A stretch of DNA of 64,000 nt from an uncultured Bacilli bacterium (GTDB lineage Bacteria > Bacillota_I > Bacilli_A > RFN20 > CAG-826): positions 19,356-83,355 of the forward strand of contig CALVNF010000003.1 in assembly GCA_944349595.1 (NCBI GenBank), written 5' to 3'. The position numbers were made by a program, and so were the translations under genes. The notes beneath the pieces were generated by a model. That model was given only the letters and a program-made list of their open reading frames with translations. It was not told where the DNA came from and searched no databases. Positions 4,572-35,589 of this stretch are shown in pieces; within the stretch, counting starts at the first letter, position 1, and each line of letters opens with the position of its first letter.

Positions 4572-5480
4572 TTAACCTTTAACAGCTCCTCCAGTAACAC
4601 CACTTACATAATATTTTTGCAAGAACATAAATAATGCGGTAATTGGTATTGCTATTACAATTGCAGCAGCACAGAATTGTTGCCAATATGTATTTCTGTT
4701 TTGAACACCGGCAATCATTTGATTTAAAACAGTTGCAACAGTACCATTATATGGATGTAAAACATACATATAGCTTGCTGTCATAAAGTCACCCCAAGGG
4801 GCCATAAATGCAAGTAAAGCTGTATAAACAATAATTGGTTTTGAAAGTGGAACAATAATTCTAAAGAATATTTGAACTTGATTTGCTCCATCAATCATGG
4901 CTGCTTCATCAATTGATTTGGAAATTGTATCAAAGAAACCTTTTGATACATAATATCCCATTCCAGCACCGCCGGAATAAATAATAATAAGAGCAATTAA
5001 ATTTTCTTGTAAACCAACTAATTTTGCTAATTGATAAAATACAATTAAGGAAATAAATCCTGGGAACATACCAAGAATTAAGATAATTCTCATCATTAAT
5101 GTTCTTGATTTAAATCTACATCTTGAAAATGCATAAGATGTAAATAATGTTAATAATGTTGAAATAATACAAGAGAATATTGCAACAATTAATGTATTTA
5201 AGAAAGTCATTCCAAAGTTTACTGGATTTGGATTTAAAGGATCTCCATAAACTCTCCAAACACCAACTGTTGAATCAAGTACTCTATTATTAAATAAGTT
5301 GACGTAATTATCAAAAGTCCATTTATCTGGCCAAAACTTTTTTAATCCAGTTAATGCTGCGCCATCATAGTCACCAAAGGATTGCAAGAATAACCAAATA
5401 ATTGGAAGAAGCCAAATAATACACAAAACTGCTAATAAAATATAAATCAATGTATCAGCAATAATTCTTCTAGTTCTCAT
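4572..5480 (-). CDS. Maltodextrin ABC transporter permease, MalG type
   Basis: 302 aa, six predicted TM segments, EAA loop (IDEAAMIDGANQVQIFFRIIVPLSKP). Its ATG overlaps the stop of the upstream permease (ATGA at 5477-5480). Confidence 0.85.
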   Translation of the reverse strand: MRTRRIIADTLIYILLAVLCIIWLLPIIWLFLQSFGDYDGAALTGLKKFWPDKWTFDNYVNLFNNRVLDSTVGVWRVYGDPLNPNPVNFGMTFLNTLIVAIFSCIISTLLTLFTSYAFSRCRFKSRTLMMRIILILGMFPGFISLIVFYQLAKLVGLQENLIALIIIYSGGAGMGYYVSKGFFDTISKSIDEAAMIDGANQVQIFFRIIVPLSKPIIVYTALLAFMAPWGDFMTASYMYVLHPYNGTVATVLNQMIAGVQNRNTYWQQFCAAAIVIAIPITALFMFLQKYYVSGVTGGAVKG

Positions 5481-8400
5481 TGAAATTCATCCTCCCTTTG
5501 AACAGCTCCTAATCTTGAATACATAATTAGTGAGAAGAATGCACAGATTAAGAATATAAATAAACCTAATGCGGAAGATATGTTATATCTACTTCTATCA
5601 CCAGTAGTTAGTGAATACAACCAGTTAATTAACAAGTCTGTTTCTTTAGCATCAAATAAGAATGGACTCTTTGTAATTTCTCCTGTTAAGAAGAATATAA
5701 CGTTGAAGTTATTAATATTTCCAACAAATGTTGTAATTAAGCTTGGTCCGGTAATAAAGAACATGTAAGGAAGTGTGATCTTGAAGAATTGAGTAACTGG
5801 ACTTGCTCCATCAATTCTACTTGATTCATATAAATCACTTGGAATGTTCATTAAAATACCACTACACATTAACATAGTATATGGGACACCAACCCAACAG
5901 TTAATAATAATAATCATAACTTTAGCTAAGTTTGGATCAGCTAAGAATTTAATTGGTGTTTCTAATAAGGCATTAATTGGACCATCAGTTGAGAATATAT
6001 TTGCAACAACCATTAAGGAAATAAACTGAGGAATAGCAATTGTTATAACAAAAATTGTTCTCCATAATTTCTTTAACTTGATTGATTTCTTATTAATTAA
6101 TAAGGATAAAATAATACCTAAGAAATAATTTGTAAATGTTGCAAAAAATGCCCAAATCAAAGTCCAAAGCAATAATGTACCAATTGTAGTTGGAATTCTA
6201 TCAGCACCATAAGTTGTTTGCCAAATTTCTTTTCCAGTAAACATTGCTAGGAAGTTATCAAACCCAATCCATTTAAATAATTGAGGATACATTGTTGTGT
6301 TATCATAATTTGTAAACCCAATTAGTAATGAACAAATTAATGGGAATATTACAACAATTACAGCTCCTAAAACTGGAAGGAATAAAATGATTCCTGAGAA
6401 TTTATCGGTAAGTAAAGAATTGACAGTCTTTTTAAATGGTTTACATTGACCACAATATTCTTCTTCTTGATATCGTGATTTAAAATCATCAACTCTCTTA
6501 TTTAATTTACTAAGGACATAAGCATCTACTAATTCTTCAAGTAATGCATAAGGAATAGTTTGACGATCTGCAATTTGGCCAAGATCAAATTTTTTAACAC
6601 CCATTTTTTTAGCGACTGTCTTTTTGATCTCTTCTAAAGGTATTCCTTCATTTTTCTTAGAGAGAGTATAATTTACGATATTTCTAGCTCTATCAATTAC
6701 ATTTTTATAAGATATTGCAACTGCTTTTGCAACTTCTCTAGAACATGTAAAGTTAGCAATAATATTACTTGTTGCATAATTTACATTTAATGGTTTAGTA
6801 AAATCAAAAACTTCTACTTTTTTATTAACTTTTAATGTTCTAGCGTATGCACTTTTTGCTTGTTGTAATTCTTCGTTCAACATACTCTTGATTAATTTAT
6901 CACTTTGTAAAGAGTTATATTGACCATCTAATTTATTAATTTTGATTTGATAATCATCTTTTAATGTATAAATATCACGATCTAATTTAAGTTTTAAATT
7001 ATAATAATCAGAATTTATTGTTTCTGGATTATTTTTTAATTCATTTAAATCATTTTCATATCGTGCTTTAAGTTCTATAATTTTGTTCTTTTCTTCAACT
7101 CTTAACTTTTTAATTTCGGTTAGAATATCATTTTTCTTTCCAAGGATTCTAGAATATTTATCCTTAATTTGTTGAACTTTTAAATTATAGTCATTTAATT
7201 TTTCTTCATCTGATTTAAAATCATTAACTTCGTTAAAGTTAGTATTTTTCTTATCTAAATTAAAGAAACAGTTTACTACTTCAACTTTTTCATTTGCAAT
7301 ATTTTCATATGCTTTATTAAAATCTAAATAAGTTCTATAAATATTATATTTGTCATATTCAAAGTGATAATTCTTTTCTTCTAATGAGAAGTCTCTCTTG
7401 AAATCATCTTTGACTTTTTTATTACTTGATAATGATTTTTTAATTTCTTCAAGATAACATACAACAAATTGATCTTTAACATTTAAAGATTCATGATCAT
7501 TATTAATCAATTTTACTAAATCTTTATTACCTTCATAAATATTCTTTTTGACAAATGAAGCAGCATCTTTTGAATATTTTGTAAGAATATTTTCATTCCA
7601 TTGATTAAAATCAAAAGCATTACGAACTATAAATTTTGGCTCTTTTACATTAAATAAGTCAAAACAATCTCTAATATTTTTTACATTTAATGTATTGATT
7701 AAGTCAGCGTTTTCTTCATCTTTTTCAAATTGATTAATAACTTTTGCTAATTCAAATTCATAAGATTCTTTGACACTATCTTTTAGTAAAGAATGTCTTT
7801 CACTGACAAATGAATTAACAACATTAAATAATTTATTAAATAATTTTAATTCAGCAAATTTATTGTTTTCAGTAATATTGTAATATCCATTAATTTTAGC
7901 AATAATTTCTGTTTTATTTAATTTTCTAAAATCAAAGAAATTTAAAATATTAAGAGCATCTTTTTCTTTATTAAATTTCTTATATTTAGAAATATGTTTA
8001 ACAGAACCTTCTTTTAAGAATCTATCAAAATCTTGAACAAAATTATCTTTTATCAACTTACTTTCATAATCTTCTGTTTCAAAAACGTTATTGAAATTTT
8101 TGATGTAAGCTAAATAAAGATTAAGAGTTTTACTAGCTTCTGATAAATCAATTCTATATTTACTACTAATCTTATATATAACTTCTTTTTTAGAGATATT
8201 ATTTAGCAATCTTTTATCTAGTTCAAAAAATCCAAGAATCTCTTTAGCATCATTTAAATTAAAATAACTTGGAATATTTGAATAAGAATTTAAAAACTTC
8301 TCAAAATTGCTATCAAAAGTATCAATAAATAATTTAGTCTTTTCTTTTAAAAGATAATTTGTTTTGTAAAATTTATAAAATTTTACATATAAATCATATA

Positions 8401-10015
8401 ATAATTCACTTATATTTGAATCAAAGTCTAATAATCCTTTTAATTTTAAGAAAGTGGATTTTTTATCAAAAAATAATTTTACTTTATAACTAAAATTATC
8501 AAAAGTTAATCCATCTAAAATTGTATCACTGGATAAATCAGTTAAAATATTTCCTTTGTATTCATTTATTTTTTCTAATAAATCATTTTTAAGTAAAATA
8601 ACATTATTTTCTTTAAGGTTATTAATTGCAAAAAACTTGTCTTTTAATACATCTCTAAAGTTAAAATCTGCTTCAATGTTATTTTCTTTTAACAATTTTT
8701 TAAAAGCTTTAACTACAGGATTTAATTCTATTTTAACTAAATTAAATTTTTCATATAAATCATTGTATGAAAGTTTATCAAGATCAAAATAATATTTAAA
8801 AGTAAAATTATAAGCCATTAAAACTTCATTATTAATACCTAAAAGATCAACTTTTTCTTTTAAATATTTAAAAACTTCTTCTTTATATAAATCATTAACA
8901 GTTAATTTTTCGCCTAACTCAAATTTTTTACTATTAACTTCTTTGGTTAAATTTTTGAAATCATATTCTTGTTCAGGTGTTAAAGAAGAAATTATATTTT
9001 TAATTGAATTAGAATCAACGACTTTCAATTTAAATCTAATTTTGATATGTCTAATTAAAGTTTCAAACATATCATCATTAATTAAATTTTTATTTTCAAC
9101 TTCATAATTCTTGAAAAATTCACGGTAAATTAAAGGAATTTCATAAAATAAATTATTAAAATTCTTATAAGAAATTAATGAGGAAGCTTGTTTTGTCAAA
9201 TTAAGATTTTCTCTAAAATATTTATCATTATTTATACAGAATAATCTTCTAACTTTTCCATTTTTTGAAACTCTAACTTGATTTGCTAAATAATCAATTT
9301 TATCTTCATTAAATAATTCACTTACTTCTTTATAACCTTTAGAATATAAATTTCCATATCTAACAATAGTATTATTGTGAGCAGTATTAATATTTCTATA
9401 CCAAATATAAACAAATACTAATGTAAATAATATTGCAATAATACCTAAAATTAAACACAAAATACTATTGTCGCCAGGAGCAATAGTTTCAACACCAGTT
9501 ATTGGATTTGTTACCAAGTGAGGACCTTGAATACCAGGTCCACTCATTCTAACTAAATCGCTAGCACCGGTCAAAATCATATAAACAATATATAAAACTT
9601 CAAAGCCAATATATAAAATACCGTTTAAATATTGTCTATGTGCTAAAGAAGATGTACCCATAACAACATATGAAATTTTTCCATATACATCATCTTCTTT
9701 AAAATATCTGTAAATTTTAATAGTAAAAAATTTGTAAATTCCTACAAAAATACCAACAAAAATTTTTACTATGCCGATTACTATATTTAATAATGCTCTA
9801 CAAACATCTAAAATAATTGACCATAAGAATTTACTAATTTTTATAATAGAATTTAAAAGACCATTAAAGAAAATTTGATACCAACTCATTGGTTCAAACT
9901 CTTCAGAAATAGACATTTGTTTTAAAGCGTTTTGATCAATATGCGAAGATTCATTATAAGCATTTTTATTAGTCGAATTGTTTACTAAAATATTCCTATT
10001 TTTTTTATTTTCCAT
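5477..10015 (-). CDS. MalF-type ABC permease with a ~950-aa internal low-complexity (K/N/E/D/L-rich) insertion (1512 aa)
   Basis: N-terminal ~220 aa: TM bundle homologous to the N-terminal extension of the 481-aa MalF paralog at 23841-25286. C-terminal ~330 aa: canonical MalF core with EAA motif (ESSRIDGASPVTQFFKITLPYM). The segment between (roughly nt 6480-9345) is an uninterrupted low-complexity, coiled-coil-like region. Confidence 0.75.
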   Translation of the reverse strand: MENKKNRNILVNNSTNKNAYNESSHIDQNALKQMSISEEFEPMSWYQIFFNGLLNSIIKISKFLWSIILDVCRALLNIVIGIVKIFVGIFVGIYKFFTIKIYRYFKEDDVYGKISYVVMGTSSLAHRQYLNGILYIGFEVLYIVYMILTGASDLVRMSGPGIQGPHLVTNPITGVETIAPGDNSILCLILGIIAILFTLVFVYIWYRNINTAHNNTIVRYGNLYSKGYKEVSELFNEDKIDYLANQVRVSKNGKVRRLFCINNDKYFRENLNLTKQASSLISYKNFNNLFYEIPLIYREFFKNYEVENKNLINDDMFETLIRHIKIRFKLKVVDSNSIKNIISSLTPEQEYDFKNLTKEVNSKKFELGEKLTVNDLYKEEVFKYLKEKVDLLGINNEVLMAYNFTFKYYFDLDKLSYNDLYEKFNLVKIELNPVVKAFKKLLKENNIEADFNFRDVLKDKFFAINNLKENNVILLKNDLLEKINEYKGNILTDLSSDTILDGLTFDNFSYKVKLFFDKKSTFLKLKGLLDFDSNISELLYDLYVKFYKFYKTNYLLKEKTKLFIDTFDSNFEKFLNSYSNIPSYFNLNDAKEILGFFELDKRLLNNISKKEVIYKISSKYRIDLSEASKTLNLYLAYIKNFNNVFETEDYESKLIKDNFVQDFDRFLKEGSVKHISKYKKFNKEKDALNILNFFDFRKLNKTEIIAKINGYYNITENNKFAELKLFNKLFNVVNSFVSERHSLLKDSVKESYEFELAKVINQFEKDEENADLINTLNVKNIRDCFDLFNVKEPKFIVRNAFDFNQWNENILTKYSKDAASFVKKNIYEGNKDLVKLINNDHESLNVKDQFVVCYLEEIKKSLSSNKKVKDDFKRDFSLEEKNYHFEYDKYNIYRTYLDFNKAYENIANEKVEVVNCFFNLDKKNTNFNEVNDFKSDEEKLNDYNLKVQQIKDKYSRILGKKNDILTEIKKLRVEEKNKIIELKARYENDLNELKNNPETINSDYYNLKLKLDRDIYTLKDDYQIKINKLDGQYNSLQSDKLIKSMLNEELQQAKSAYARTLKVNKKVEVFDFTKPLNVNYATSNIIANFTCSREVAKAVAISYKNVIDRARNIVNYTLSKKNEGIPLEEIKKTVAKKMGVKKFDLGQIADRQTIPYALLEELVDAYVLSKLNKRVDDFKSRYQEEEYCGQCKPFKKTVNSLLTDKFSGIILFLPVLGAVIVVIFPLICSLLIGFTNYDNTTMYPQLFKWIGFDNFLAMFTGKEIWQTTYGADRIPTTIGTLLLWTLIWAFFATFTNYFLGIILSLLINKKSIKLKKLWRTIFVITIAIPQFISLMVVANIFSTDGPINALLETPIKFLADPNLAKVMIIIINCWVGVPYTMLMCSGILMNIPSDLYESSRIDGASPVTQFFKITLPYMFFITGPSLITTFVGNINNFNVIFFLTGEITKSPFLFDAKETDLLINWLYSLTTGDRSRYNISSALGLFIFLICAFFSLIMYSRLGAVQREDEFQ

Positions 10016-10083
10016 AAAACTACCTACCTAATAAAAAAAAGAGAAGAGCACTTATAGTGCTCTTCTTGAAAATAATACTATAT

Positions 10084-11484
10084 TTATTCAACAACAGCAC
10101 CAAGTGCACCAAGTAAATTGTTAATAGCTGCATCACCTGCTTCACTATCAACAGTTCCTGCTACACCAAATGTTGTTCCGAATGTTGTAATTTGATCCCA
10201 ACCAGTTTGAGCACTTAAAGCTTTAGCTTGTGAGTGAGCAAATTTTGATTGAGCAGCTAATGCTTGAGCAACTTCTGAAGATTGAACTTCTGGAAGAGTG
10301 CTAACATAGTTATTAGTAGGAATATATTGTCTTAAATTGAAGTGTAAAAGTTGAGATTTTGCACTTGTTAAATAATAAGATAATAAGTGAGCTGTATTTG
10401 GTCTTTCTGTATTTGATTTTACGATATAAACTTTATATCCATCAAAACCTTCTAATTGACCAGTTTTACCATCATAAGTTACAGTTGGAAGTGGTGCAAT
10501 ACCTACAGTTTCATTTGCTTCTTTTTCAGTAAATCCAGCATTAACCATTGCTGTTTTAATACCTTCATAGTTATTCCATGAAATACCACCAATAACAGTT
10601 TCATTAGCAAATCCATCTTGTAAGTTTGTTTGAATGGCAGAACCGTTACAAGATTCTAATGTTCCTTGCCAATCTGTAAAGTATTTATTAACTGTTTCAC
10701 CAACTTTAGTGATTCCTTCTTTTGTAAAATCAGAATCTTGTGCAAATGTGACAGTTGTAATACCAGTTACTGGATCAGTTTTCGATTCTGGCTCAATCCA
10801 CATATCACCGCCGGAAAGCCATAACCAACAACAAATATACCAACCTTCTTGCATTGGATAATAGAAATCTAAATTATTTTTTTTAGCAATTTCTAAAATT
10901 TTATCTAATGAACGAGCATCTTCATCAGAAACAAGTTTTTTGTTGTAAAGTAAAACTTGGGCGTTGCCACTAACTGCTGAATAACCATACATTTTGTCAG
11001 AAATCGTTGCAGCATCACTTGCAGTATCTAAAATTTCAGTTTTTAATTTACTTCTAAGTGATTCTGGAACTGGTGATAAGAAGTTACTTGAAATAGCATT
11101 CATAACTTGGTCATCTGCTGATAATGCAACATCTGGAGCTTCATCTAAATCAGCTTGTAATGCTTTATAAGCATCAGCTTCACCAACTTGGTTATTAATA
11201 GTAAATGTAACATCTTTTAATTCAGGAATATCTTTCTTAAATTCAGCAATTGCTTGATTTAAGAATGGTTCATCTTCAGTTGAACATCCAACTACTAATT
11301 CACCACTTTCTTTTGCTGCTTCTGAAACAAATGCGTTAATGACGTCATCTCTTTCAAATTCTACAACAGATGGTTCAAATCCACTTGTGGTACTTGTTTC
11401 ATCTGTTTCTCCACATGATGCGAGTCCTACACCGACGATTAGGACTAATGCACTTAAAACACTAAGTTTTCTTTTGTTTAACAT
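10084..11484 (-). CDS. Maltodextrin-binding lipoprotein (ABC substrate-binding protein, MalE-like)
   Basis: Track start is TTG at 11511. Better start is ATG 11484 (MLNKRKLSVLSALVLIVGVGLASCGET, lipobox LASC) preceded by GGGAGGAG. Family-1 substrate-binding protein located between the GH13 gene and malF. Confidence 0.8.
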   Translation of the reverse strand: MLNKRKLSVLSALVLIVGVGLASCGETDETSTTSGFEPSVVEFERDDVINAFVSEAAKESGELVVGCSTEDEPFLNQAIAEFKKDIPELKDVTFTINNQVGEADAYKALQADLDEAPDVALSADDQVMNAISSNFLSPVPESLRSKLKTEILDTASDAATISDKMYGYSAVSGNAQVLLYNKKLVSDEDARSLDKILEIAKKNNLDFYYPMQEGWYICCWLWLSGGDMWIEPESKTDPVTGITTVTFAQDSDFTKEGITKVGETVNKYFTDWQGTLESCNGSAIQTNLQDGFANETVIGGISWNNYEGIKTAMVNAGFTEKEANETVGIAPLPTVTYDGKTGQLEGFDGYKVYIVKSNTERPNTAHLLSYYLTSAKSQLLHFNLRQYIPTNNYVSTLPEVQSSEVAQALAAQSKFAHSQAKALSAQTGWDQITTFGTTFGVAGTVDSEAGDAAINNLLGALGAVVE

Positions 11485-11674
11485 TATTATAATTCTCCTC
11501 CCTAAAATCAATCTATATAAGATTGACTTACATAATGTTATTAATATTTTAGTGCATGATTATTAACTTGTAAACAAAAAAATGAAAGCGTTTTCAATTT
11601 TTTTAAAAATATTGCACATTACAAATTTAATATGTCTAAAAATTATAAATAAAACGTCAGTTTATAACAATTTA

Positions 11675-16197: not shown

Positions 16198-17310
16198 TTA
16201 TTTAATTCTTTCTTCTGTTTCAGGATCAAAGAATAAAATTTTCTTAGTATCAAATCTCATTACAACGTGTTGATGTAATGCAATTTGTTTTTCAGCAGAG
16301 AATTTAGCAACTAAATCATCGCCACCAAAATCAGCATGAATATAATATTCATGGCCTAATAATTCAGCGACTTTAACTTCTACATCAAAGCTACCATTTT
16401 CAACTTTATCACTTTGATGGACATCTTCTGGTCTAATTCCAATTATCACATCACTTGGAATATCTCTACCTTTAATTAATTCTTCTGGTAAAACTAATTT
16501 ATGACCATCAGAGAATGTAATTGTTCCCTTATCATATTTAACTCTAAAGAAATTCATACTTGGGGAGCCAATAAATCCTGCGACAAATAAATTATTTGGT
16601 TTATTATAAATTTCAATTGGAGTTCCAATTTGTTGAACTTTACCTTTGGACATAACAACAATTCTTGATGCCATTGTCATAGCTTCAGTTTGGTCATGAG
16701 TAACATAAATTGTTGTTGCACCTAAAGAATCATGAAGTTTAATAATTTCAGATCTCATTTGAACTCTTAATTTAGCATCTAAGTTACTTAAAGGTTCATC
16801 CATTAAGAAGACTTTTGCATTTCTAACAATTGCTCTTCCTAATGCGACTCTTTGTCTTTGACCACCTGATAAGGCTCTTGGTTTTCTATCTAAATATTCT
16901 TCAATTTGTAAAATTCTTGCAGCTTCGTTAACTCTACGGTCAATTTCAGTTTTTGGCATATGTCTAATTTTTAAACCAAATGCCATATTATCATATACTG
17001 ACATATGTGGATATAATGCATAACTTTGGAAAACCATTGCAATATCACGGTCTTTTGGAGATTTATCATTACATAATTCTCCATCAATGTATAATTCACC
17101 ATTTGTAATTTCTTCAAGACCAGCAATCATTCTTAAGGTTGTTGATTTACCACAACCAGATGGTCCAACTAAGACAATGAATTCGTGTTTTTTAATATCT
17201 AAATTAAAATCAAAGACTGCTTGTACGTTATTGTCATAAACTTTATCAATATGTTTAAGACTAACGTAAGGTCTTTCTGTTGCTTCTTGTGTAAGTTTTT
17301 CTTTAGCCAT
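16198..17310 (-). CDS. Sugar ABC transporter ATP-binding protein (MalK/MsmK type)
   Basis: 370 aa. Walker [10 protein letters not shown], signature LSGGQRQR, Walker [12 protein letters not shown]-terminal TOBE-like regulatory domain. Confidence 0.9.
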   Translation of the reverse strand: MAKEKLTQEATERPYVSLKHIDKVYDNNVQAVFDFNLDIKKHEFIVLVGPSGCGKSTTLRMIAGLEEITNGELYIDGELCNDKSPKDRDIAMVFQSYALYPHMSVYDNMAFGLKIRHMPKTEIDRRVNEAARILQIEEYLDRKPRALSGGQRQRVALGRAIVRNAKVFLMDEPLSNLDAKLRVQMRSEIIKLHDSLGATTIYVTHDQTEAMTMASRIVVMSKGKVQQIGTPIEIYNKPNNLFVAGFIGSPSMNFFRVKYDKGTITFSDGHKLVLPEELIKGRDIPSDVIIGIRPEDVHQSDKVENGSFDVEVKVAELLGHEYYIHADFGGDDLVAKFSAEKQIALHQHVVMRFDTKKILFFDPETEERIK

Positions 17311-20661: not shown

Positions 20662-22356
20662 ATGAATAAACAAGCAATTTACCACTCAAATAATTTAAAT
20701 TATTCTTATTTCTTAAATAATAAATTTCATCTAATATTAAGAGTTTCAAAAGATGATACTTTTGATGAACTCAATATTATTTATGGACCAAAATATTATT
20801 TTCAACAAAAAGAATACCGCAAAATAGATAAACTTTATTATTTAAGATCAGATGATTTATTTAGCTATTATAAATGTGTTGTTGATATAAAAGAATACAG
20901 AATTGCATACATTTTTCAATTAAAAATAAATAATAAAGTATATTATTATTCTCAAATTGGAATATTTGAAGATAAATATAATTACGATTTATCATATTTT
21001 GATTTCTTCCAATTTTCAAATGCATTAAACGACAAAATTAAAATATATAAAGAATTTAATAAACTAAGTATTTATCAAATATTTGTTGACAGATTTATGG
21101 TTGGAAATACTAAGCATAAAGAATACGTTAACCTAAAAATAGATGAACTTCCAAATAGTAAGTCTTTTTTTGGTGGAGATTTAAAAGGAATTTATAATTC
21201 TTTAGAATATATAAAATCTTTAGGATTTAACGCAATTTATTTAACTCCAATTTTTAAATCGATTTCTAATCATAAATACGATATTTATGATTATTTTAAT
21301 GTTGATAAACAATTTGGAAGTAAGAAAGATTTAAAATTACTTGTAGATAAAGCTCACAAATTAGGAATCAAAATAATTTTAGATATGGTTTTTAATCATT
21401 GTTCAAATAAGAACAAAATATTCTTAGATGTTAAAAAACACAACAAAACCTCAAAATTTTCTAAATTATTCTTCTTAAAAAATATAAAAGAAAATAAATT
21501 TGATTATGAAACTTATTTTCTTTTAGATTATATGCCAAGACTTAATACAAATAATATTGAAACTCAAAAATATTTTGAAAAAGTTACAAAGTATTATGCA
21601 ACTAAGTTTAATATCGATGTTTTTAGATTAGATGTTTGCGAAGAATTATCTAAATCATTTTTAATTGATTTAAATAAATCTCTTAAACAAATTAATCCAA
21701 ACATTATTCTTTTTGGTGAAAATTGGCATTTAGATAATACTGATTTAAATCCAAATATTATTGATTCACAAACTAACTACTTTTTATTAAGAATTTTAAT
21801 GGATTTTTACAAAAATAATGTAAATCTTAACGAAACTATTAATAATTTTAATAAGATATTAAATACATATAATCCAATTTATTTAAATAGATTAATAAAT
21901 ATTTTAGATTGTCATGATACAGATAGATTTTATACAGTAGTTAATAAAAACTATGATAAATATTTAAGTGCTTACACTATTAACTTCTTCTTTCCAGGAG
22001 TTCCTTTATTTTATTATGGCGATGAAATTCCTCTTGAAGGAGGTTTTGATCCAGATAATCGAAGACCATTTAATATGGAATTAGTTAATAAAAATTCAAA
22101 AATATATAAACTTATTGTCTTTTTAAATACTCTTAGAAGAAATCATTTAATTGATTTAGATACAAAAATCTATGAGTATAACAATCTTTTATGTATAGAG
22201 AGATTTAATGATAAAAAATCATACAAACTATACATAAATAATTCAAATGAAGATATTTCATTTGAATGCAACAAATTAGTTCTTTATAGCAATCTATTTG
22301 ATAAAAATAAGATTGAAAAAGATGGATTTTTAATTTTAGAGGAGGATTTATCATGA
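20662..22356 (+). CDS. Cytoplasmic GH13 enzyme (neopullulanase/cyclomaltodextrinase-like), paralog of 11675-13378
   Basis: 564 aa. GH13 blocks (MVFNH, VFRLDVCEEL, GENW, DCHDTDR) and the same N-terminal domain architecture as the paralog. Confidence 0.8.
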   Translation: MNKQAIYHSNNLNYSYFLNNKFHLILRVSKDDTFDELNIIYGPKYYFQQKEYRKIDKLYYLRSDDLFSYYKCVVDIKEYRIAYIFQLKINNKVYYYSQIGIFEDKYNYDLSYFDFFQFSNALNDKIKIYKEFNKLSIYQIFVDRFMVGNTKHKEYVNLKIDELPNSKSFFGGDLKGIYNSLEYIKSLGFNAIYLTPIFKSISNHKYDIYDYFNVDKQFGSKKDLKLLVDKAHKLGIKIILDMVFNHCSNKNKIFLDVKKHNKTSKFSKLFFLKNIKENKFDYETYFLLDYMPRLNTNNIETQKYFEKVTKYYATKFNIDVFRLDVCEELSKSFLIDLNKSLKQINPNIILFGENWHLDNTDLNPNIIDSQTNYFLLRILMDFYKNNVNLNETINNFNKILNTYNPIYLNRLINILDCHDTDRFYTVVNKNYDKYLSAYTINFFFPGVPLFYYGDEIPLEGGFDPDNRRPFNMELVNKNSKIYKLIVFLNTLRRNHLIDLDTKIYEYNNLLCIERFNDKKSYKLYINNSNEDISFECNKLVLYSNLFDKNKIEKDGFLILEEDLS

Positions 22357-23828
22357 AAAAATCTATTTTTTGGCTATTACCTATCTTACTTTTATCATCT
22401 TGTGGTCCAAGTGGACAAGATGGTACAAGTGTAGGTGGAGATGTTAGCGAACTCATTTTTTCTAAATTCGACGGTAATTTAGAAAAAGAAAGAGGTGCTG
22501 TATTGCACATCTTAGAAAATGACTTGGCTAAAGAATCAGGTTATCTTAAAGAATTACTCGATGGCTTTAATGAAAAATATGCTGAATATGGAATTACAGC
22601 TGTTGATGCAAATCTTGATGAATACACTGACTTAGTCAATTCTGGACCTTATGGAACAGGACCTGATGTCTTATATCAAGCAAATGACTCATTAATGAAA
22701 TATGTTCCTGGTAAACATATTTTACCAATTCCAGTTGATAGACTTGAATGTTATGATCAAGTTTCTCAAATTGGTTGGGATACATTTACAAGTGATGCAA
22801 ATTATAATTCTACATTCACTTATGGAGTTCCAGTAAATATTCAAACACCACTTCTTTATTATAGAAAAGACTTACTACCAAGTGATTGGCAAGCAAATTG
22901 GGATGATAATAAAAATAATATTCCTGATATGGTTGAAACAAGGAATAGTATGTATCAATATTCAAAACAATTAAAAGAGTCTTCTGGCGGAACTAAATTT
23001 GGCTTTATGAGAGCAATGCAAGATTCATACTTTGTTTCGGGATATTTATTTACATATGGTGCATATATCTTTGGAAACAATAATAAAGATACAAAAGATA
23101 TCGGTATGCATAAAGGTAATGCAAAATATGGAGCAAAATTTATTAGAGATTTCTCTGCTGTAATGGATAATAGATGTACTGATTTAACTATCAATGCAAC
23201 TGGTTATTCTTTACTTGCAAATGGAGAAATGTTTGCAACAACAAATACTCCAGATACAACAAGAAGTTATATTACAACTTTTAGAGATGTATTAATAAAT
23301 CCAACAGGTCAATACAAAATGACAGCTGAAGAAGCAAATAAATATATTGATGAAAATCTTGTAATTACAACTCTTCCAAAAATGCCTAAAAATGGTGATG
23401 TTACAGATCCAAATGAAACTGAATTTATTGATACCACAATGATGGGTGGAATTCATGGTTATTCTATTTCTGCTTATACAAAATATCCAAATGCATGTTT
23501 AGCATTTTTAGATTACGCTACAAGTTATGAACTTCTAAAAAAGAGAACTGAGACTTTACAATTATCTCCTGCAAGAGAAGATTTAGCTGAAGTTACAACT
23601 CCAATTAATAAAGAAATTTATAACATGTTAGAAAATGGAACCATCTATATGATGCCTTCAATTGAAGAATTAGCATTATTCTGGCCATCTGCTCAAACTT
23701 TATTTGCTGATTTAGCAACTGATGGATTAAGAAAAGATAATTTCCGTTATGATACATTAGATAAGATACAAGCTGCCTTAGAAAAATTATCGAAAGATGT
23801 TTATGATGCAATTTGGACATTGCAATAA
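22353..23828 (+). CDS. Sugar ABC transporter substrate-binding lipoprotein
   Basis: 491 aa. Lipobox LLSSCGPSG. ATGA overlap with the upstream gene. Located immediately 5' of malF/malG/malK. Confidence 0.75.
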   Translation: MKKSIFWLLPILLLSSCGPSGQDGTSVGGDVSELIFSKFDGNLEKERGAVLHILENDLAKESGYLKELLDGFNEKYAEYGITAVDANLDEYTDLVNSGPYGTGPDVLYQANDSLMKYVPGKHILPIPVDRLECYDQVSQIGWDTFTSDANYNSTFTYGVPVNIQTPLLYYRKDLLPSDWQANWDDNKNNIPDMVETRNSMYQYSKQLKESSGGTKFGFMRAMQDSYFVSGYLFTYGAYIFGNNNKDTKDIGMHKGNAKYGAKFIRDFSAVMDNRCTDLTINATGYSLLANGEMFATTNTPDTTRSYITTFRDVLINPTGQYKMTAEEANKYIDENLVITTLPKMPKNGDVTDPNETEFIDTTMMGGIHGYSISAYTKYPNACLAFLDYATSYELLKKRTETLQLSPAREDLAEVTTPINKEIYNMLENGTIYMMPSIEELALFWPSAQTLFADLATDGLRKDNFRYDTLDKIQAALEKLSKDVYDAIWTLQ

Positions 23829-23840
23829 TAAATAAAAATT

Positions 23841-25286
23841 ATGGTTCAAAGAATTACTAATTACTTTACCGCTTTAGGTAAAGTAATAAAAAATTGGTTT
23901 ATTAAACTTGGTAAGAATACAAAAAGTTTCTTTGTAAACTTACCAAGAAATACCAAAAACTTCTTTATTGGCTTGTATCAAATTATTAAACATTATTTAA
24001 TTACATCACAATATCCAGTTTATTTAAGTGCTATTGTTATGGGTTTAGGCCAAGTATTTAATAAACAATATATTAAAGCAGCTTTATATTTCTTAGTTGA
24101 AGTTGGCTTTATATTATTTATGGTCTTCTTAGGTGGTAATTATTTATCTGGATTAATTACTCTTGGTGTTAATCAAGCTGATCCTATATTAGGAATTCAA
24201 GGTGATAACTCAATTGCTTTAATGCTTATGGGATTAGTTAGTGTTGTTATTATAATTGTCTTTATTTATTTATATATTTCAAATATTAGAGACTGTTATA
24301 GAACAAGAAACGTAATTTTAAATGGTAAAAAACCAAATACATTTGTTCAAGGGTTAAAAGATTTATTAGATAAGAACTTTTATAAAACAGTTCTTGCTAT
24401 TCCATTAATTGGAGTTGCTGTATTCTCAGTTGTTCCAATTATCTTCATGATTTTAATTGCTTTTACAAATTATTCAAGTTCATTAGAACCTCCAACTGAT
24501 TTAATTGATTGGGCAGGATTTGAAAGCTTTCAAACAATATTTGGAGCTGGAAATATTTCAGATACATTCTTTAAAATCCTAGGTTGGAATATTTTATGGG
24601 CTATATTAACAACTGTTATTAACTATTTTATTGGTCTTGGTTTAGCACTTTTATTAAATAGTAAGAAATTAAAAGGGAAAGTATTTTTTAGAGCATTCCC
24701 AATTCTTGCTTATGCAATTCCAGGATTTATTACCATGTTAGCATTTAAGTTTATGTTCTCAAATGGTGGCCCAATTAATTACTATCTTAAATTATTTGGA
24801 GCGGACACAATTGATTTCTTAGGAATTGACTCTACTTGGACAGCTAGATTTATTGGCTTATTTGTTAACGCTTGGGTTAGTACTCCTTCAATTATGCTTC
24901 TTGCAACAGGTATTTTATCAAACTTAAATACCGACTTATATGAAGCAGCTTCAATTGATGGAGCAAGTAAATTTAGACAATTCTATAAGATTACATTACC
25001 ATTTGTTGTTTTCTCAACAACTCCAGTTATTATTAGTCAGTTTATATCTAACTTCAATAACTTTGGTGTTTTCTACTTCTTAAGAGGTTCAATTTATTCA
25101 TCTGGTTATTTTGTTGCATCTGATACAGATTTATTAATTAACTGGTTATATAGATTATCAATTGATCAACAAAACTATAACATTGGTGGTGCTATTTCTA
25201 TTTTAGTATTCATTATTACATCAATTATTTCATTATTAGTTTATGTTAGATCGCCTGCTTATAGAAAGGAGGATACTTATCGATGA
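23841..25286 (+). CDS. Maltodextrin ABC permease, MalF type (with N-terminal extra TM bundle)
   Basis: 481 aa. EAA motif EAASIDGASKFRQFYKITLPF. The N-terminal ~160 aa are homologous to the N-terminus of the giant permease at 5477-10015. Confidence 0.85.
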   Translation: MVQRITNYFTALGKVIKNWFIKLGKNTKSFFVNLPRNTKNFFIGLYQIIKHYLITSQYPVYLSAIVMGLGQVFNKQYIKAALYFLVEVGFILFMVFLGGNYLSGLITLGVNQADPILGIQGDNSIALMLMGLVSVVIIIVFIYLYISNIRDCYRTRNVILNGKKPNTFVQGLKDLLDKNFYKTVLAIPLIGVAVFSVVPIIFMILIAFTNYSSSLEPPTDLIDWAGFESFQTIFGAGNISDTFFKILGWNILWAILTTVINYFIGLGLALLLNSKKLKGKVFFRAFPILAYAIPGFITMLAFKFMFSNGGPINYYLKLFGADTIDFLGIDSTWTARFIGLFVNAWVSTPSIMLLATGILSNLNTDLYEAASIDGASKFRQFYKITLPFVVFSTTPVIISQFISNFNNFGVFYFLRGSIYSSGYFVASDTDLLINWLYRLSIDQQNYNIGGAISILVFIITSIISLLVYVRSPAYRKEDTYR

Positions 25287-26149
25287 TAAAAAATAAATCT
25301 AGTAAACCAAAAAGATATTTAACTACAATTTTGGTTTATATAATTACAGTTATTGTTTGTTTTATCTTCTTCTTTCCATGTTTATGGATTATATTAGCAG
25401 CCTTTTCTGGTACTGGATCTATTTATAACTTTAATGGGTTCTTTCCTCCAAACTTCTCTTTAAAAACATTTGAACAATTATTTACCGGTGTTACAGATGT
25501 TTCTGGAGATACAGTCATGTATCCTTATATGACTTGGTTCTTAAATACATTAATAATTGCATGTGCAACCGCAGTTATTGGTACACTTTTATTAATCAGT
25601 ACTGCTTATGTTATTTCAAGATTTGAATTTAAAGCCAGAAGAAAATTAATGAAAGGCGCTTTAGTTCTTGGAATGTTCCCAGCCTTTATGGGAATGACAG
25701 CGGTCTTTATTATGTGTACTCAATTCCAATTATTAAATAATTTATGGGGACCAATTTTAATGTATAGTACAACTGCTCCAGTTGGATATTTAGTTCAAAA
25801 AGGTTTCTTTGATTCCATTCCAACTTCAATTTATGAAGCAGCAAGAATTGATGGAGTTAGTAATTTTAAAGCATTCTATAAAATTACACTGCCACTTTCA
25901 AAACCAATTTTAGTCTATACAGTTTTAACTCAATTTACATGGCCTTGGAGTGATTTCATTCTTCCAAAATTATTATTACAAGATAAAAGTAATTACACAG
26001 TTGCAGTTGGATTAATGACTCTTCCTGATACAGAATTTTCAAGATTCTGTGCTGGTAGTGTATTTATTGCAGTACCAATTGTCTTGTTATATTTCTTTGT
26101 TTCAAAATATATGGTTAATGGATTAACTGCTGGTGCAGTAAAAGGTTAA
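25283..26149 (+). CDS. Maltodextrin ABC permease, MalG type
   Basis: 288 aa. EAA motif YEAARIDGVSNFKAFYKITLPLSKP. ATGA overlap with malF. Confidence 0.85.
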   Translation: MIKNKSSKPKRYLTTILVYIITVIVCFIFFFPCLWIILAAFSGTGSIYNFNGFFPPNFSLKTFEQLFTGVTDVSGDTVMYPYMTWFLNTLIIACATAVIGTLLLISTAYVISRFEFKARRKLMKGALVLGMFPAFMGMTAVFIMCTQFQLLNNLWGPILMYSTTAPVGYLVQKGFFDSIPTSIYEAARIDGVSNFKAFYKITLPLSKPILVYTVLTQFTWPWSDFILPKLLLQDKSNYTVAVGLMTLPDTEFSRFCAGSVFIAVPIVLLYFFVSKYMVNGLTAGAVKG

Positions 26150-26164
26150 TAAGGAGTTTAAAAA

Positions 26165-27355
26165 ATGGCAAAAGTTACACTTAAAAATATATACAAAGTT
26201 TATAAAGGTGGCGTCAAAGCGGTTAATGACTTTAATTTAGATATACCAGATAAAGAATTTGTCGTCTTTGTTGGACCATCTGGTTGTGGTAAATCAACAA
26301 CCTTAAGAATGATTGCTGGTCTTGAAGAAATTACCAGTGGATCATTATATATCGATGATGTTTTGGCAAACGATTTAGAACCAAAAGATAGAGATATTTC
26401 CATGGTTTTCCAAAACTATGCTTTATATCCAAATATGACTGTTTATGAAAACATGGCATTTGGTTTACAATCTCAAAAATTGCCAAAAGAAGAAATTAAA
26501 AAGAAAGTTGATCAAGCAGCTGAAATTCTTGGTATTAAAGATTATTATAATAGACAACCAAGAGAATTATCTGGTGGTCAAAGACAAAGAGTCGCTTTAG
26601 GAAGAGCAATTGTTAGAGAACCAAAAGTCTTCTTACTTGATGAACCATTAAGTAATCTTGATGCTAAATTAAGAGTTCAAATGAGATCTGAAATTACTAA
26701 ATTACATCAAAGATTACAAACAACATTTATTTATGTTACTCATGACCAAACAGAAGCTATGACAATGGGTACAAAAATTGTTGTTATGAAGGATGGTTTT
26801 ATTAAACAAGTTGACACTCCAACAAATTTATATATGCATCCTGCAAATATATTTGTTGCAACATTCTTAGGCTCACCTCAAATGAATTTATTTAATGCAA
26901 AAATTGTCAAAGATGGTAAGAAATATAAAATTTTATTAGAAGATGGAACAGAAAATGTTGTTCCACTTACAACTAATAAATTACTTGAAATTACTGATGA
27001 TAATTTTGTCGACAAAGATTTAATTTTAGGTATTAGACCTCGAGATATTCACATTGTTCCAAATACTGAAGATGGATTCAAAATTAAAGTTGAAATTGTT
27101 GAAAAATTAGGTGATGAAAACTTAATTTATACTCATTTATTTGGTAAAAAAGAATATACAATATTTGTCGTTGATGCAAAACAAGAAGTTAAAGTTGATG
27201 ATGAATTAACAATTAAGTTTGATGAACATAACATCTACTTATTTGATAAAGAAAACGAAGAATCATTATTTAAAATTCCAGAATATAACTACTTTACAAT
27301 CGATGATATTAATAAATATTTAGATATCGAAGAATTAAGCAAGAAGATATATTAA
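26165..27355 (+). CDS. Sugar ABC transporter ATP-binding protein (MalK/MsmK type)
   Basis: 396 aa. Walker A, LSGGQRQR, Walker B, TOBE-like C-terminus. Confidence 0.9.
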   Translation: MAKVTLKNIYKVYKGGVKAVNDFNLDIPDKEFVVFVGPSGCGKSTTLRMIAGLEEITSGSLYIDDVLANDLEPKDRDISMVFQNYALYPNMTVYENMAFGLQSQKLPKEEIKKKVDQAAEILGIKDYYNRQPRELSGGQRQRVALGRAIVREPKVFLLDEPLSNLDAKLRVQMRSEITKLHQRLQTTFIYVTHDQTEAMTMGTKIVVMKDGFIKQVDTPTNLYMHPANIFVATFLGSPQMNLFNAKIVKDGKKYKILLEDGTENVVPLTTNKLLEITDDNFVDKDLILGIRPRDIHIVPNTEDGFKIKVEIVEKLGDENLIYTHLFGKKEYTIFVVDAKQEVKVDDELTIKFDEHNIYLFDKENEESLFKIPEYNYFTIDDINKYLDIEELSKKIY

Positions 27356-29153: not shown

Positions 29154-30134
29154 TTAGTTGTCTTTTTTCAAAGATAAACCTAATTCTGCTAATTTATCTT
29201 GAATTTCTTTAAATGATTTTTTACCAAGATTTCTAAATTTCATGTATTCGTCTTCACTTAATTGTGTTAATTCTTGAACAGTTTGGAAACCTTGTCTTTT
29301 TAAACAATTGAATGCTCTGACACTTAAATCGAGTTCTTCAATTGACATATTATTGAATTTATCTGCTGGTTTTGCTTCTTCTTCTTTAAATGCATCGAGT
29401 TGTTGATCAACAACATTTTGTAAATCTAAGAATCTTTCAAAGTGAGCGATAAGAATTTCACTTGCAAGTTCTAAAGCTTCAACAGCAGTAATTGAACCAT
29501 CAGTTGTGACTTCTAATTTTAAGGAATCATATCTTGAATCTTGGTCAACTCTTGTTGGTTCTACTTCATAATTTACTTTTACAATTGGACTGTAATTGCT
29601 ATCTGTTGCAATAATTCCAATTTGTTTAGAATTTGTTGCTTCTAATTTCTTTTTATTTTCTTCATTTGTTAAATAGCCTCTACCATTTCTTGCATAGATG
29701 ACCATTTTTAAATGTCCACCTTCTGCTAAATGAGCTATTTCTAAATCTGGATTAATAATAGTTACATCATGTGGAACTTGTAAATCTTTTGCATATACTG
29801 TGCATGGACCAAAGACTTCGAGCTCTAATCTTTTTGTATCTTCATTATTTCCATCAATTTTTAAAATCAATCTTTTTAAATTTAATATAATTCTTGTAAC
29901 ATCTTCTTCAACACCATCAAGAGCACTAAATTCATGTAATGCACCTTCAATGTTAATTGCATATACACTAGCACCTGGAATTGAGCCTAATAATACTCTT
30001 CTTAAAGCATTTCCAAGAGTGATTCCAAAACCTCTTTCTAAAGGTTGTAATACAAATTCACCATAAACTTTATTATCAGATTGATTTAAAACTGTGAAGT
30101 TTGGCTTTTCAAATGGTTGTACAATTTTATTCAT
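29154..30134 (-). CDS. rpoA: DNA-directed RNA polymerase subunit alpha
   Basis: 326 aa, with N-terminal dimerisation domain and alpha-CTD. Position between rpsK and rplQ is canonical. Confidence 0.95.
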   Translation of the reverse strand: MNKIVQPFEKPNFTVLNQSDNKVYGEFVLQPLERGFGITLGNALRRVLLGSIPGASVYAINIEGALHEFSALDGVEEDVTRIILNLKRLILKIDGNNEDTKRLELEVFGPCTVYAKDLQVPHDVTIINPDLEIAHLAEGGHLKMVIYARNGRGYLTNEENKKKLEATNSKQIGIIATDSNYSPIVKVNYEVEPTRVDQDSRYDSLKLEVTTDGSITAVEALELASEILIAHFERFLDLQNVVDQQLDAFKEEEAKPADKFNNMSIEELDLSVRAFNCLKRQGFQTVQELTQLSEDEYMKFRNLGKKSFKEIQDKLAELGLSLKKDN

Positions 30135-30172
30135 TCATTAATCCTCCATAAATAACATTAAATAATTTTATA

Positions 30173-30562
30173 TTATCCACGTGGTCTTTTTGGTGGTCTA
30201 CAACCATTGTGTGGAATTGGTGTAGTATCAGTAATTGATAAAACTTTTAAACCAGCAACTTCAAGAGATCTAATTGCTGTATCTCTACCACTACCAGTAC
30301 CTTTTACAAAAACATCAACTGTTTTTAAACCTTGATCAACAGCAGCTTTTGCAGCTTGTTCAGCGGCATTTTGAGCAGCAAATGGTGTACCTTTTCTAGC
30401 ACCTTTATATCCAATTGCACCAGCACTTGACCAAGCAATAGCATTACCTTTTTCATCAGTAATTGTAACTATTGTATTATTAAAGGTTGCATGAATATGA
30501 GCTAAACCTTTAGTATAAGTTCTTTTAATTTTTTTCTTTTTGCTTACAGTTTTATTAGCCAT
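30173..30562 (-). CDS. rpsK: 30S ribosomal protein S11
   Basis: 129 aa. Conserved S11 core ([15 protein letters not shown]...). Confidence 0.95.
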
Positions 30563-30580
30563 AATTATTCTCCTTTAAGA

Positions 30581-30961
30581 TTACTTAGCATCTGTTGCTT
30601 TCTTCTTATTAGCAATAGTTTTTCTTGGTCCTTTTCTTGTACGAGCATTAGTTTTTGTTCTTTGACCTCTTACAGGAAGACCTCTTCTATGTCTAATACC
30701 TCTATAACAGCCAATTTCTGTTAATCTTTTAATATTAAGAGCAACTTCTCTTCTTAAGTCACCTTCTAATTTATATTTAGAAAGTTCAACTCTAATTTTA
30801 GCGAGTTGTTCTTCAGTTAAATTTTTTACTCTGATTGTTGGATCAATTCCAATATCATTTAAGATTTTTTTACTTGTTGAAATTCCAATACCATAAATAT
30901 AAGTTAATGAATAAGCTACTTGTTTATCATTTGGAATGTCAACACCAACGATTCTTGCCAT
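30581..30961 (-). CDS. rpsM: 30S ribosomal protein S13
   Basis: 126 aa. Begins [10 protein letters not shown]... Confidence 0.95.
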
Positions 30962-30980
30962 ACTTTAATATCTCCTTTAA

Positions 30981-31094
30981 TTAACCTTGTCTTTGTTTAT
31001 GTTTTGGATTAGAACAAATTACCATGACTTTTCCATGTCTTTTAATAACCCTACATTTATCACAGATAGGTTTTACAGATGGTCTTACTTTCAT
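30981..31094 (-). CDS. rpmJ: 50S ribosomal protein L36
   Basis: 37-aa ORF below the track size cutoff: [37 protein letters not shown]. Zinc-ribbon C-x2-C...C-x4-H pattern. Lies between infA and rpsM. Confidence 0.85.
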
Positions 31095-31120
31095 AATTAA
31101 TTCTCCTTAACATTTAATAA

Positions 31121-31339
31121 TTATTTATATCTATATGTTATTCGGCCCTGTTTTAAATCGTATGGACTGATTTCAACACTAACTCTATCCCCTGGGAAAA
31201 TGCGAATATTATTTAGACGGATTTTTCCAGAAACAGTGGCCATAATTGTTAGTCCGTTTTCAAGTTCAACTTTGAACTTAACATTTGGTAAACTTTCTTT
31301 TACCACAGCCATACATGTAATACAATCATCCTTCGCCAT
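31121..31339 (-). CDS. infA: Translation initiation factor IF-1
   Basis: 72 aa, S1-like fold sequence. Overlaps map by 14 nt. Confidence 0.95.
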
Positions 31340-32099: not shown

Positions 32100-32105
32100 C
32101 TATTT

Positions 32106-32756: not shown

Positions 32757-32773
32757 ATAACTCCTAGAAAATA

Positions 32774-34108: not shown

Positions 34109-34111
34109 GGT

Positions 34112-34555: not shown

Positions 34556-34573
34556 AACTAATCTCCTTTAAGT

Positions 34574-35200: not shown

Positions 35201-35210
35201 AATTCACTCC

Positions 35211-35567: not shown

Positions 35568-35589
35568 AATAACTAATCCTTTCTTTTAA

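Follow-up and report, generated by a model that had tools for sequence, protein, structure and literature searches.

A 978-Residue Predicted Cytoplasmic Insert in a MalF-Type Permease from an Uncultured Bacilli Bacterium

The Maltodextrin Locus and Its Giant Permease

The 64,000-nucleotide stretch of DNA analysed here, hereafter the window, belongs to an uncultured Bacilli bacterium (assembly GCA_944349595.1, contig CALVNF010000003.1, forward-strand positions 19,356 to 83,355) and harbours, within a ten-gene maltodextrin/starch locus on the minus strand, a gene coding for a giant permease of an ATP-binding cassette (ABC) importer. In transcription order, the locus carries a PucR-type regulator, a MalK-type ATPase (16198..17310, minus strand), a pullulanase, a glycoside hydrolase family 13 (GH13) enzyme, a substrate-binding lipoprotein (SBP; 10084..11511, minus strand), the giant permease (5477..10015, minus strand), a MalG-like permease (4572..5480, minus strand), an amylase lipoprotein, and a GH77 4-alpha-glucanotransferase. 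The SBP, the second permease and the ABC ATPase that characterise a type I importer operon are all present.

The permease gene is a complete open reading frame (ORF) of 1512 codons in the ORF listing. A first-pass annotation, made from the letters of the DNA and such a listing, had described this frame as uninterrupted, and indeed no internal stop is found in it. BPD_transp_1, at residues 1299-1498 (59.6 bits versus a gathering cutoff of 26.4), is the sole Pfam domain recognised in the protein. At the junction with the MalG-like gene downstream, the ATG of the latter and the TGA stop of the permease gene overlap (ATGA), and the AGGGAGG ribosome-binding site of the MalG-like gene sits inside the 3' end of the giant permease gene, an arrangement indicating that the two genes would be translationally coupled. 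Because TGA ends the giant permease gene over the MalG-like ATG, it also appears to be read as a stop in this host, which points to code 11 and not to the Mycoplasma code. In the 68-bp gap between the SBP and permease genes, the promoter/terminator scan revealed a terminator-like hairpin (10042..10066, minus strand) with an 11-pair stem followed by the T-run CTTTTTTTTA. A hairpin of this kind between the two genes is the usual arrangement for producing more SBP than permease, and the present one is probably an attenuator through which SBP is made in excess of the permease. Within the giant permease gene, internal promoter matches stay at chance level (61 versus 54.6±7.6), leaving an internal transcript unsupported.

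A second maltodextrin operon, at 20662..27355, is devoid of any such insert. It includes a 481-residue paralog of the giant permease (23841..25286, plus strand), identified from the ORF listing and by BLASTP, which serves as comparator throughout.

Boundaries, Topology and Composition of the Insert

Two collinear blocks of the giant permease align with this paralog in BLASTP, namely, residues 90-213 with paralog residues 42-153 (30% identity, E 2e-9) and residues 1192-1512 with paralog residues 164-481 (39% identity, E 2e-66). Between them lies an insert of 978 residues (214-1191; 6443..9376, minus strand), at a position occupied by only ~10 residues in the paralog. The first-pass annotation had placed an insertion of about 950 residues at 6480..9345, in the loop that joins the N-terminal helix bundle to the MalF core; the alignment confirms the site, and the interval was essentially right, if slightly narrow. 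At the base composition of the insert (A 44%, T 36%), a stop would be expected every ~9 codons, and the probability of 978 stop-free codons by chance is ~5e-49. The other five frames of the insert contain 47-220 stops.

With regard to the parts flanking the insert, residues 1-105 (9701..10015, minus strand) comprise an N-terminal cytoplasmic tail and a long amphipathic/hydrophobic helix, conserved in all relatives and corresponding to a single 61-residue helix (H27-87) in the relative P0009 described below. They are followed by two accessory transmembrane (TM) helices separated by an extracellular loop (residues ~113-209; 9389..9679, minus strand), recognised from hydropathy peaks at 130-151 and 184-202 and from the BLASTP match to paralog residues 42-153, and equivalent to TM1-TM2 of Escherichia coli MalF. 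Downstream of the insert, the MalF core (residues 1192-1512; 5477..6442, minus strand) is supported by BLASTP, by six hydrophobic segments that make up its six TM helices, and by the NCBIfam MalF model (145.9 bits). Its EAA coupling loop, 'YESSRIDGASPVTQFFKITLPY' (residues 1396-1417; 5765..5830, minus strand), is invariant in homologs.

In the MalFGK2 structures (PDB 2R6G), MalF TM3 crosses the membrane outwards, starting in the cytoplasm after the TM2-TM3 loop on that side and ending in the periplasm; the EAA coupling loop, for its part, has to be turned towards the ATPase, MalK. The core of the paralog matches the MalF chains 3fh6_F and 2r6g_F (E 1e-40), and its core TM1, 'LIGVAVFSVVPIIFMILIAFTNYSSS', aligns with the E. 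coli MalF segment 'MAGMGLFVLFPLVCTIAIAFTNYSST', which we assign to TM3 of the 2R6G structure; the giant permease has the same core TM1 sequence pattern. Hydropathy analysis detected no hydrophobic or TM segment within the 978 residues, the maximal 19-residue Kyte-Doolittle mean being 0.81 against 1.6-3.1 for the TM helices. Since core TM1 aligns with MalF TM3, the EAA loop is kept and the insert lacks a hydrophobic segment, homology supports a cytoplasmic location for the whole insert, at the position of the E. coli MalF TM2-TM3 loop, and thereby the cytoplasmic-loop placement proposed at first reading.

The initial description of the insert as K/N/E/D/L/F-rich was accurate, these six residues accounting together for 60% of it (K 14%, N 11.7%, L 11.1%, E 8.3%, F 7.3%, and D 7.3%). 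The accompanying term 'low-complexity' has to be abandoned, as a SEG-like mask covers 1.4% of the insert, versus 16% of the TM parts, and simple repeats are absent. Sequence entropy is 3.83 bits in the insert versus 4.03 in the rest of the protein, Tandem Repeats Finder yields units of 9-12 bp x2 only in the insert DNA, and comparison of the insert with itself by BLAST gave nothing off-diagonal at E<=5. The GC content of the insert (20.7%) is the lowest of the gene, compared with 29.4% for the core and 27.5% for the window. Because a homologous insert from a genome of 35.5% GC is K/E/A-rich and not K/N/F/Y-rich, the odd composition would largely be the outcome of AT bias in the genome, exerted on a domain under weaker constraint.

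Independent Copies and Selection

A search for insert homologs in a collection of 5.8 billion proteins retrieved three close ones, which are 97%, 82% and 67% identical and 1512, 1512 and 1514 residues long, respectively. The full-length gene was recovered from four independent assemblies; locus L001 is contig CASDYC010000002.1 of a metagenome-assembled genome (MAG), and ENA and Logan samples yielded L002, L003 and L004. The source samples are ERZ16268140, ERZ17292905 and ERR10610529. Gene order is identical around all close homologs, and the alignment of their inserts contains zero insertions or deletions over 978 residues, down to 67% identity. A full-length gene recovered four times from independent assemblies, with an insert free of such changes, rules out an assembly or frameshift artefact.

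Ratios of non-synonymous to synonymous substitution rates (dN/dS) were calculated according to Nei-Gojobori, the ranges for sub-regions being taken from three comparisons (window versus 82% homolog, window versus 67% homolog, and 82% versus 67% homolog). For the whole insert, dN/dS amounts to 0.18 against the 82% homolog and 0.32 against the 67% homolog, the corresponding values for the core being 0.04 and 0.12. Along the insert, the ratio ranges from 0.05 to 0.16 at residues 214-303, from 0.22 to 0.41 at residues 304-870, from 0.09 to 0.27 at residues 871-1030, and from 0.17 to 0.23 at residues 1031-1191. The insert is under purifying selection throughout, tightest at both membrane-proximal ends and loosest in the middle, and the whole-insert values of 0.18-0.32 bear out the earlier statement that the frame is maintained under selection.

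A Family of Inserts at One Site

Searched exhaustively with HMMER, a set of 1.84 billion representative proteins contained matches to a profile of the insert in MalF-type proteins only, of 1002-1514 residues. Besides the window clade, P0004 (1353 residues) was matched with an E value of 2e-128, from insert position 272 onwards, and P0005 (1002 residues) with an E value of 3e-10 over insert positions 638-854. With a profile built from the full alignment A3, candidates were swamped by K/N-rich words, and 10 matches only were obtained. An insert-deleted profile, restricted to the N-terminal helices and the core, returned thousands of permeases, the best 120 of which were analysed and proved to be mostly 916-970 residues long.

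When measured between the same two anchor points, the inserts of MalF homologs from related genomes vary more than 4-fold in length at this one site and fall into discrete classes of 17 residues (6 clusters of 512-514-residue proteins, counted as insert-less), 205-233 residues (13 clusters), 400-474 residues (101 clusters), 812-820 residues (4 clusters), and 982 residues (4 clusters, including the window clade). Homologous inserts at the identical site are present in more than 120 protein clusters from MAGs of uncultured Bacilli/Erysipelotrichaceae, and the window insert is the longest version known of one expandable insert family, which the first-pass annotation had overlooked. The few members named at NCBI are labelled 'MAG: ABC transporter permease subunit' or 'sugar ABC transporter permease' and assigned to 'Erysipelotrichaceae bacterium' or 'Bacilli bacterium', while the JGI label of relatives reads 'arabinogalactan oligomer/maltooligosaccharide transport system permease'. 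Cluster members carry MAG labels only, with no cultured organism among them. The insert sequence gave nothing significant against Pfam, NCBIfam or PDB, weak matches of the insert or its relatives to FF, Synaptobrevin, adenylate cyclase and ColH being discarded as chance-level, and no description of the insert was found in the full-text literature. It represents an undescribed domain family, whose proteins are already in public databases under generic names.

Profile comparison with hhalign connects the length classes. Residues 936-1061 of the window protein are homologous to a conserved hairpin of the ~450-residue class, represented by a 120-sequence family (probability 97%, E 3e-11), residues 206-304 share homology with the first part of the ~220-residue inserts (probability 76%, E 2e-5), and the junction between insert and core aligns with the short-insert class from residue 1170 on. 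Matches of residues 330-860 and 860-1200 to the short-insert class were not significant in hhalign. The family is defined here by an insert in the loop between TM-C and core TM1, with an N-terminal base motif, 'N.YR..N.Y', and a hairpin motif, 'LD/LP..DK.I....KEEL/I...K.AY.R', and the giant permease belongs to it by the profile matches to P0004 and P0005 and the hhalign matches. When the insert-deleted sequences were placed in a neighbour-joining tree, rooted on the window paralog and drawn without support values, all insert-bearing proteins form a single clade, the insert-less 512-514-residue proteins branch outside it, and the window and 820-residue clades group with the 220-residue class. 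This tree, which is indicative only, suggests a single origin of the insert.

Every insert-family locus inspected is of the maltodextrin/starch type. At the loci of P0005, P0029, P0009 and P0097, genes for an SBP, a MalG-like permease and an amylase accompany that of the insert-bearing permease; three of these loci combine an upstream MalK-type ATPase with a downstream pullulanase, and the fourth has a GH77 enzyme. P0011 (673 residues), a related MalF-type permease, displays a K/E-rich, coiled-coil-looking extension of ~250 residues before its 'PGLGQ' TM bundle; being N-terminal and not located in the loop, this extension may represent a convergent cytoplasmic appendage. At a locus of the short-insert class, L011, the MalK-type ATPase (7187..8458, plus strand; 423 residues) gives faint Pfam matches and may itself carry an insertion.

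Modules and Predicted Structure

From its N-terminus, the insert begins with a membrane-proximal base, module A (residues 214-303; 9107..9376, minus strand), which is its most conserved part, near-invariant in four close homologs and common to the ~220-residue class. The clade-specific expansion that follows (residues 304-870; 7406..9106, minus strand) is predicted to form short helices, is the fastest-evolving region according to dN/dS, and is modelled by AlphaFold2 (AF2) mostly with a low predicted local distance difference test score (pLDDT); in alignment A3, residues ~304-484 are missing from the 1344-1354-residue relatives. This region contains two copies of a tandem duplication (residues 517-578, 8282..8467, and residues 608-670, 8006..8194, both on the minus strand), found by hhalign of family sub-alignments (probability 92%, E 7e-7) and visible by profile-profile comparison only. 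A conserved block, 'EEKNYHFEYDKYNIYRTYLDFN...NCFFNLDKKN' (residues 871-935; 7211..7405, minus strand), invariant in close homologs, recognisable in P0004 and P0005 and covered by the profile match to P0005, precedes a long antiparallel helical hairpin (residues 936-1062; 6830..7210, minus strand). The latter is supported by an AF2 pLDDT of 70-87 and by the hhalign match to the family, consists of helices 936-994, 1001-1035 and 1039-1062 (59, 35 and 24 residues), carries the motif 'INKLDGQYNSLQSDKLI..EELQQAKSAY', and is homologous to the second of two hairpins, or arm 2, of the ~450-residue inserts.

The insert ends with a highly conserved C-terminal base module (residues 1063-1191; 6443..6829, minus strand), for which pLDDT reaches 70-80 at ~1103-1163. 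Its last residues form a YCGQC (CxxC) motif (residues 1187-1191; 6443..6457, minus strand), located ~17 residues ahead of core TM1 and before an amphipathic helix. YCGQC is invariant in the 1512-residue clade and present in three of the four ~820-residue clusters (among them P0004 and P0006, P0008 having CGQA), and no CxxC occurs in the ~450-residue class. The motif might serve in redox chemistry, metal binding or dimerisation.

The AF2 model of the window insert, computed from a 4-sequence alignment, is nearly all-helical, with a mean pLDDT of 49 and a predicted template modelling score (pTM) of 0.28, and is confident only at ~936-1062 and ~1103-1163. The first impression of a coiled-coil-like sequence therefore fits residues 936-1062, ~13% of the insert, where a long hairpin of coiled-coil type is predicted; the remaining ~850 residues are predicted, with low confidence, as short helices, and crude heptad scoring of the insert gave no informative signal. 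With 120 family sequences, the 959-residue relative P0009 was modelled with a mean pLDDT of 83 and a pTM of 0.69. The model shows, in this order, the 61-residue N-terminal helix, the two accessory TM helices, base modules with two hairpins, and the MalF core. Short helical base modules (187-249, 384-435 and 551-637) alternate with the antiparallel hairpins H250-322/H327-383 and H436-495/H500-550, whose arms of 51-73 residues would reach up to ~9-11 nm if straight. Foldseek comparison of this model with the PDB matched the core only, to MalF, SugA, AlgM1 and others.

In the 101 clusters of the ~450-residue class, conservation extends over the base modules and arm 2, whose lengths do not vary, while arm 1 is variable (52-82 and 38-57 residues) and neither tip is conserved. 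Retained in the window protein are module A, the pre-hairpin block, arm 2 and the C-terminal base; ~560 residues (304-870) are added, and arm 1 is not detectable.

Possible Roles of the Insert

Taken together, these data show that the insert is a genuine, selected, soluble domain, predicted to be mostly alpha-helical and cytoplasmic, of an otherwise complete MalF/GanP-type maltodextrin permease. As the second maltodextrin operon is insert-less, the insert would be dispensable for basic transport chemistry and, since the insert-less paralog and insert-less relatives have the same core, it should lie outside the sugar pathway. We infer that it probably functions as an accessory cytoplasmic appendage, away from the translocation path.

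Such an appendage would be attached at the periphery of the transporter, on the MalK-binding face. Its conserved membrane-proximal base modules, which may pack on the cytoplasmic face of MalF beside the MalK ATPase, flank an ancestral antiparallel hairpin of ~59+59 residues, up to ~9 nm long if straight, to which ~560 lineage-specific helical residues were added, partly by tandem duplication. The helical arm and the extra modules could thus project ~9 nm or more into the cytoplasm; for comparison, in MalFGK2 structures MalK and its regulatory domain reach to ~7-8 nm from the membrane. There, they might act as a docking, regulatory or organising element, for instance by clamping or positioning the ATPase or, alternatively, by associating with partners or neighbouring transporters. 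The scaffold, tether or regulatory platform proposed at first reading remains a plausible idea. Conservation concentrated in the base and in the ascending half of arm 2, together with tips that are free and an arm 1 that varies, fits better with a clamp, a spacer or self-association than with a tip-binding receptor, and each of these specific mechanisms is much less likely than the general reading of an accessory appendage.

Some observations weigh against such a role. The AF2 model of the window insert is poor (mean pLDDT 49), with residues 304-870 mostly at low pLDDT, the unconserved hairpin tips argue against a specific tip-binding partner, and the central ~560 residues evolve fastest and follow the AT bias of the genome, as would fit weak functional constraint.

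A more far-reaching version, that the family constitutes a new transporter-embedded apparatus in which a conserved base on the permease bears expandable coiled-coil arms that physically connect the importer with the regulatory domains of its ATPase, with transporters nearby or with some other structure in the cytoplasm, seems fairly unlikely to us. If true, the linking arms would give starch uptake a higher-order organisation or a layer of control that is not known in type I importers.

That the insert is instead a tolerated 'junk' expansion, an AT-driven sequence in a permissive loop selected only for solubility and frame, we consider unlikely. Such an origin would account for a GC content that is the lowest in the gene (20.7% versus 29% in the core), a composition rich in F, Y, M, I, N and K that follows the genome bias, a length varying more than 4-fold among relatives, the highest dN/dS in the central part (0.22-0.41), the absence of any known domain, and the occurrence of a K/N-rich insert in another ABC component of the window. 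It is difficult to reconcile with a sequence that is only 1.4% SEG-masked and free of simple repeats, that has accumulated zero indels over 978 residues at 67% identity with dN/dS well under 1 in every sub-region, and whose family keeps its motifs and a constant-length hairpin across more than 100 clusters, with a helical architecture confidently predicted in P0009.

It is likewise improbable that the insert is a scaffold for self-association, in which coiled-coil arms would pair between transporters, possibly helped by the CxxC motif, and build arrays beneath the surface amylase and pullulanase lipoproteins. Long hairpins with unconstrained tips and a variable arm 1 are what would be expected if only the heptad pattern mattered, YCGQC is conserved in the 980-residue clade and in three of the four ~820-residue clusters, and the loci encode extracellular amylase and pullulanase. 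However, CxxC is absent from the ~450-residue class and replaced by CGQA in P0008, and neither arm 1 nor the tips hold the best-conserved positions, which fall in the base and in arm 2.

An extracellular starch- or host-binding domain on a wall-less cell, suggested by a locus that handles an extracellular polymer and by the large surface domains common in proteins of small low-GC bacteria, is very improbable given a core TM1 homologous to the inside-to-outside TM3 of MalF, an EAA loop that must face MalK, flanks rich in K/R on either side, in keeping with the positive-inside rule, and 978 residues without a hydrophobic segment for extra membrane crossings. The unusual length and the MAG-type source of relatives might also evoke an assembly chimera, a gene fusion or a decaying pseudogene, a negligible option that is refuted by the same architecture, length and synteny in four independent assemblies or samples, purifying selection, translational coupling to the MalG-like gene, and graded homologs in more than 120 clusters.

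Other Features of the Window

A third MalK/MsmX-type ABC ATPase (52075..53490, minus strand) is 471 residues long, compared with 370 and 396 residues for the other two. Its helical subdomain harbours a K/N/E/I-rich insertion of ~80-95 residues, between 'GLKMRKF' and 'NYASSILGL...LSGGQ', so that two components of sugar ABC importers in this genome carry a cytoplasmic helical insert. Close to it, at 54539..62410 (minus strand), two putative glycoside hydrolases of the GxGYxYP family (557 and 970 residues) adjoin an ABC operon with an SBP and two permeases, and phosphomannose isomerase, the 471-residue ATPase and a ROK kinase are encoded downstream.

The region 29154..43400 (minus strand) carries a cluster of ribosomal protein, SecY, Adk, Map and RpoA genes, so the window is chromosomal. 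In this cluster, the S5 ORF has 208 residues and its Pfam domain starts at residue 61, which may reflect an N-terminal extension or an over-extended start. The adjoining region 44150..48993 (minus strand), with a HipA_C kinase-like gene (44910..45785), a Fic/Bro-N gene (47929..48801) and a tRNA (48913..48993), could be a small mobile or toxin island.

Comparison with Known Systems

The first-pass annotation had added that giant inserts in ABC permeases are known in some Mollicutes, a statement for which we found no supporting paper in the literature. In Mollicutes, giant permeases of the FtsX type are known, with extracellular domains. An assignment to the FtsX/MacB type, marked by an FtsX domain and a large extracytoplasmic domain between TM1 and TM2, was discarded here, given the absence of an FtsX match, BPD_transp_1 as the only domain, and the cytoplasmic placement of the insert; moreover, the relatives are labelled as Bacilli/Erysipelotrichaceae MAGs, not as classical Mollicutes, and the host uses TGA as a stop.

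In Rad50/SMC proteins, a long antiparallel coiled-coil hairpin interrupts the ABC ATPase domain and carries a CxxC zinc hook at its apex. The likeness to the giant permease, an ABC-system protein also interrupted by a projecting antiparallel hairpin, is an analogy only: the insert belongs to the transmembrane domain subunit, its CGQC motif lies at the base, and there is no sequence similarity.

The regulatory domains of type I importers, such as the TOBE/OB domain of MalK, the C2 domain of MetN and the CBS domains of OpuA, are cytoplasmic, C-terminal on the ATPase, and of known folds. They resemble the proposed role of the insert in being cytoplasmic accessory domains, whereas the insert is placed within the permease and belongs to no recognisable fold family. 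To our knowledge, the permeases of type I ABC importers are compact, and it is the ATPase that bears the regulatory parts. A conserved and selected cytoplasmic domain of 200-980 residues, built into the permease itself in more than 120 clusters of an uncultured gut-type Bacilli lineage, points to an unrecognised mode of regulation, anchoring or organisation of a nutrient importer, and the length series at one site (17, 220, 450, 820 and 980 residues), along with the insert-less paralog in the same genome, offers ready-made comparisons.

By its sequence, the giant permease is MalF-like (CUT1/GanP-type), a permease of a type I importer. It shares with E. coli MalF (PDB 2R6G, 3FH6 and 4JBW) a homologous type I core, the EAA loop, two extra N-terminal TM helices, and an operon with a binding protein, a MalG-like partner and a MalK-type ATPase. 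The large extra domain of E. coli MalF is the periplasmic P2 loop between TM3 and TM4, whose counterpart in the giant permease, the loop between core TM1 and TM2, has only ~45 residues (1233-1276); the large domain of the giant permease is found instead in the cytoplasmic TM2-TM3 loop. Membership of the MalF equivalog (NCBIfam NF008232) was rejected, as the 145.9 bits cover the core only, against a cutoff of 392, and the P2 loop is lacking.

The closest sequence subfamily consists of the GanP/MdxF-type permeases of Firmicutes, which have the same N-terminal helices and core. Their 512-514-residue members show a 17-residue loop at the insert site, and the characterised-type members are insert-less. 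Permeases of 916-970 residues from Bacilli/Erysipelotrichaceae MAGs, such as P0009, share with the giant permease the insert site, homologous hairpin and base motifs, and the type of locus. They differ from it by an insert of ~410-470 residues with two hairpins, whereas the giant permease, in which arm 1 is not detectable, carries ~560 other residues.

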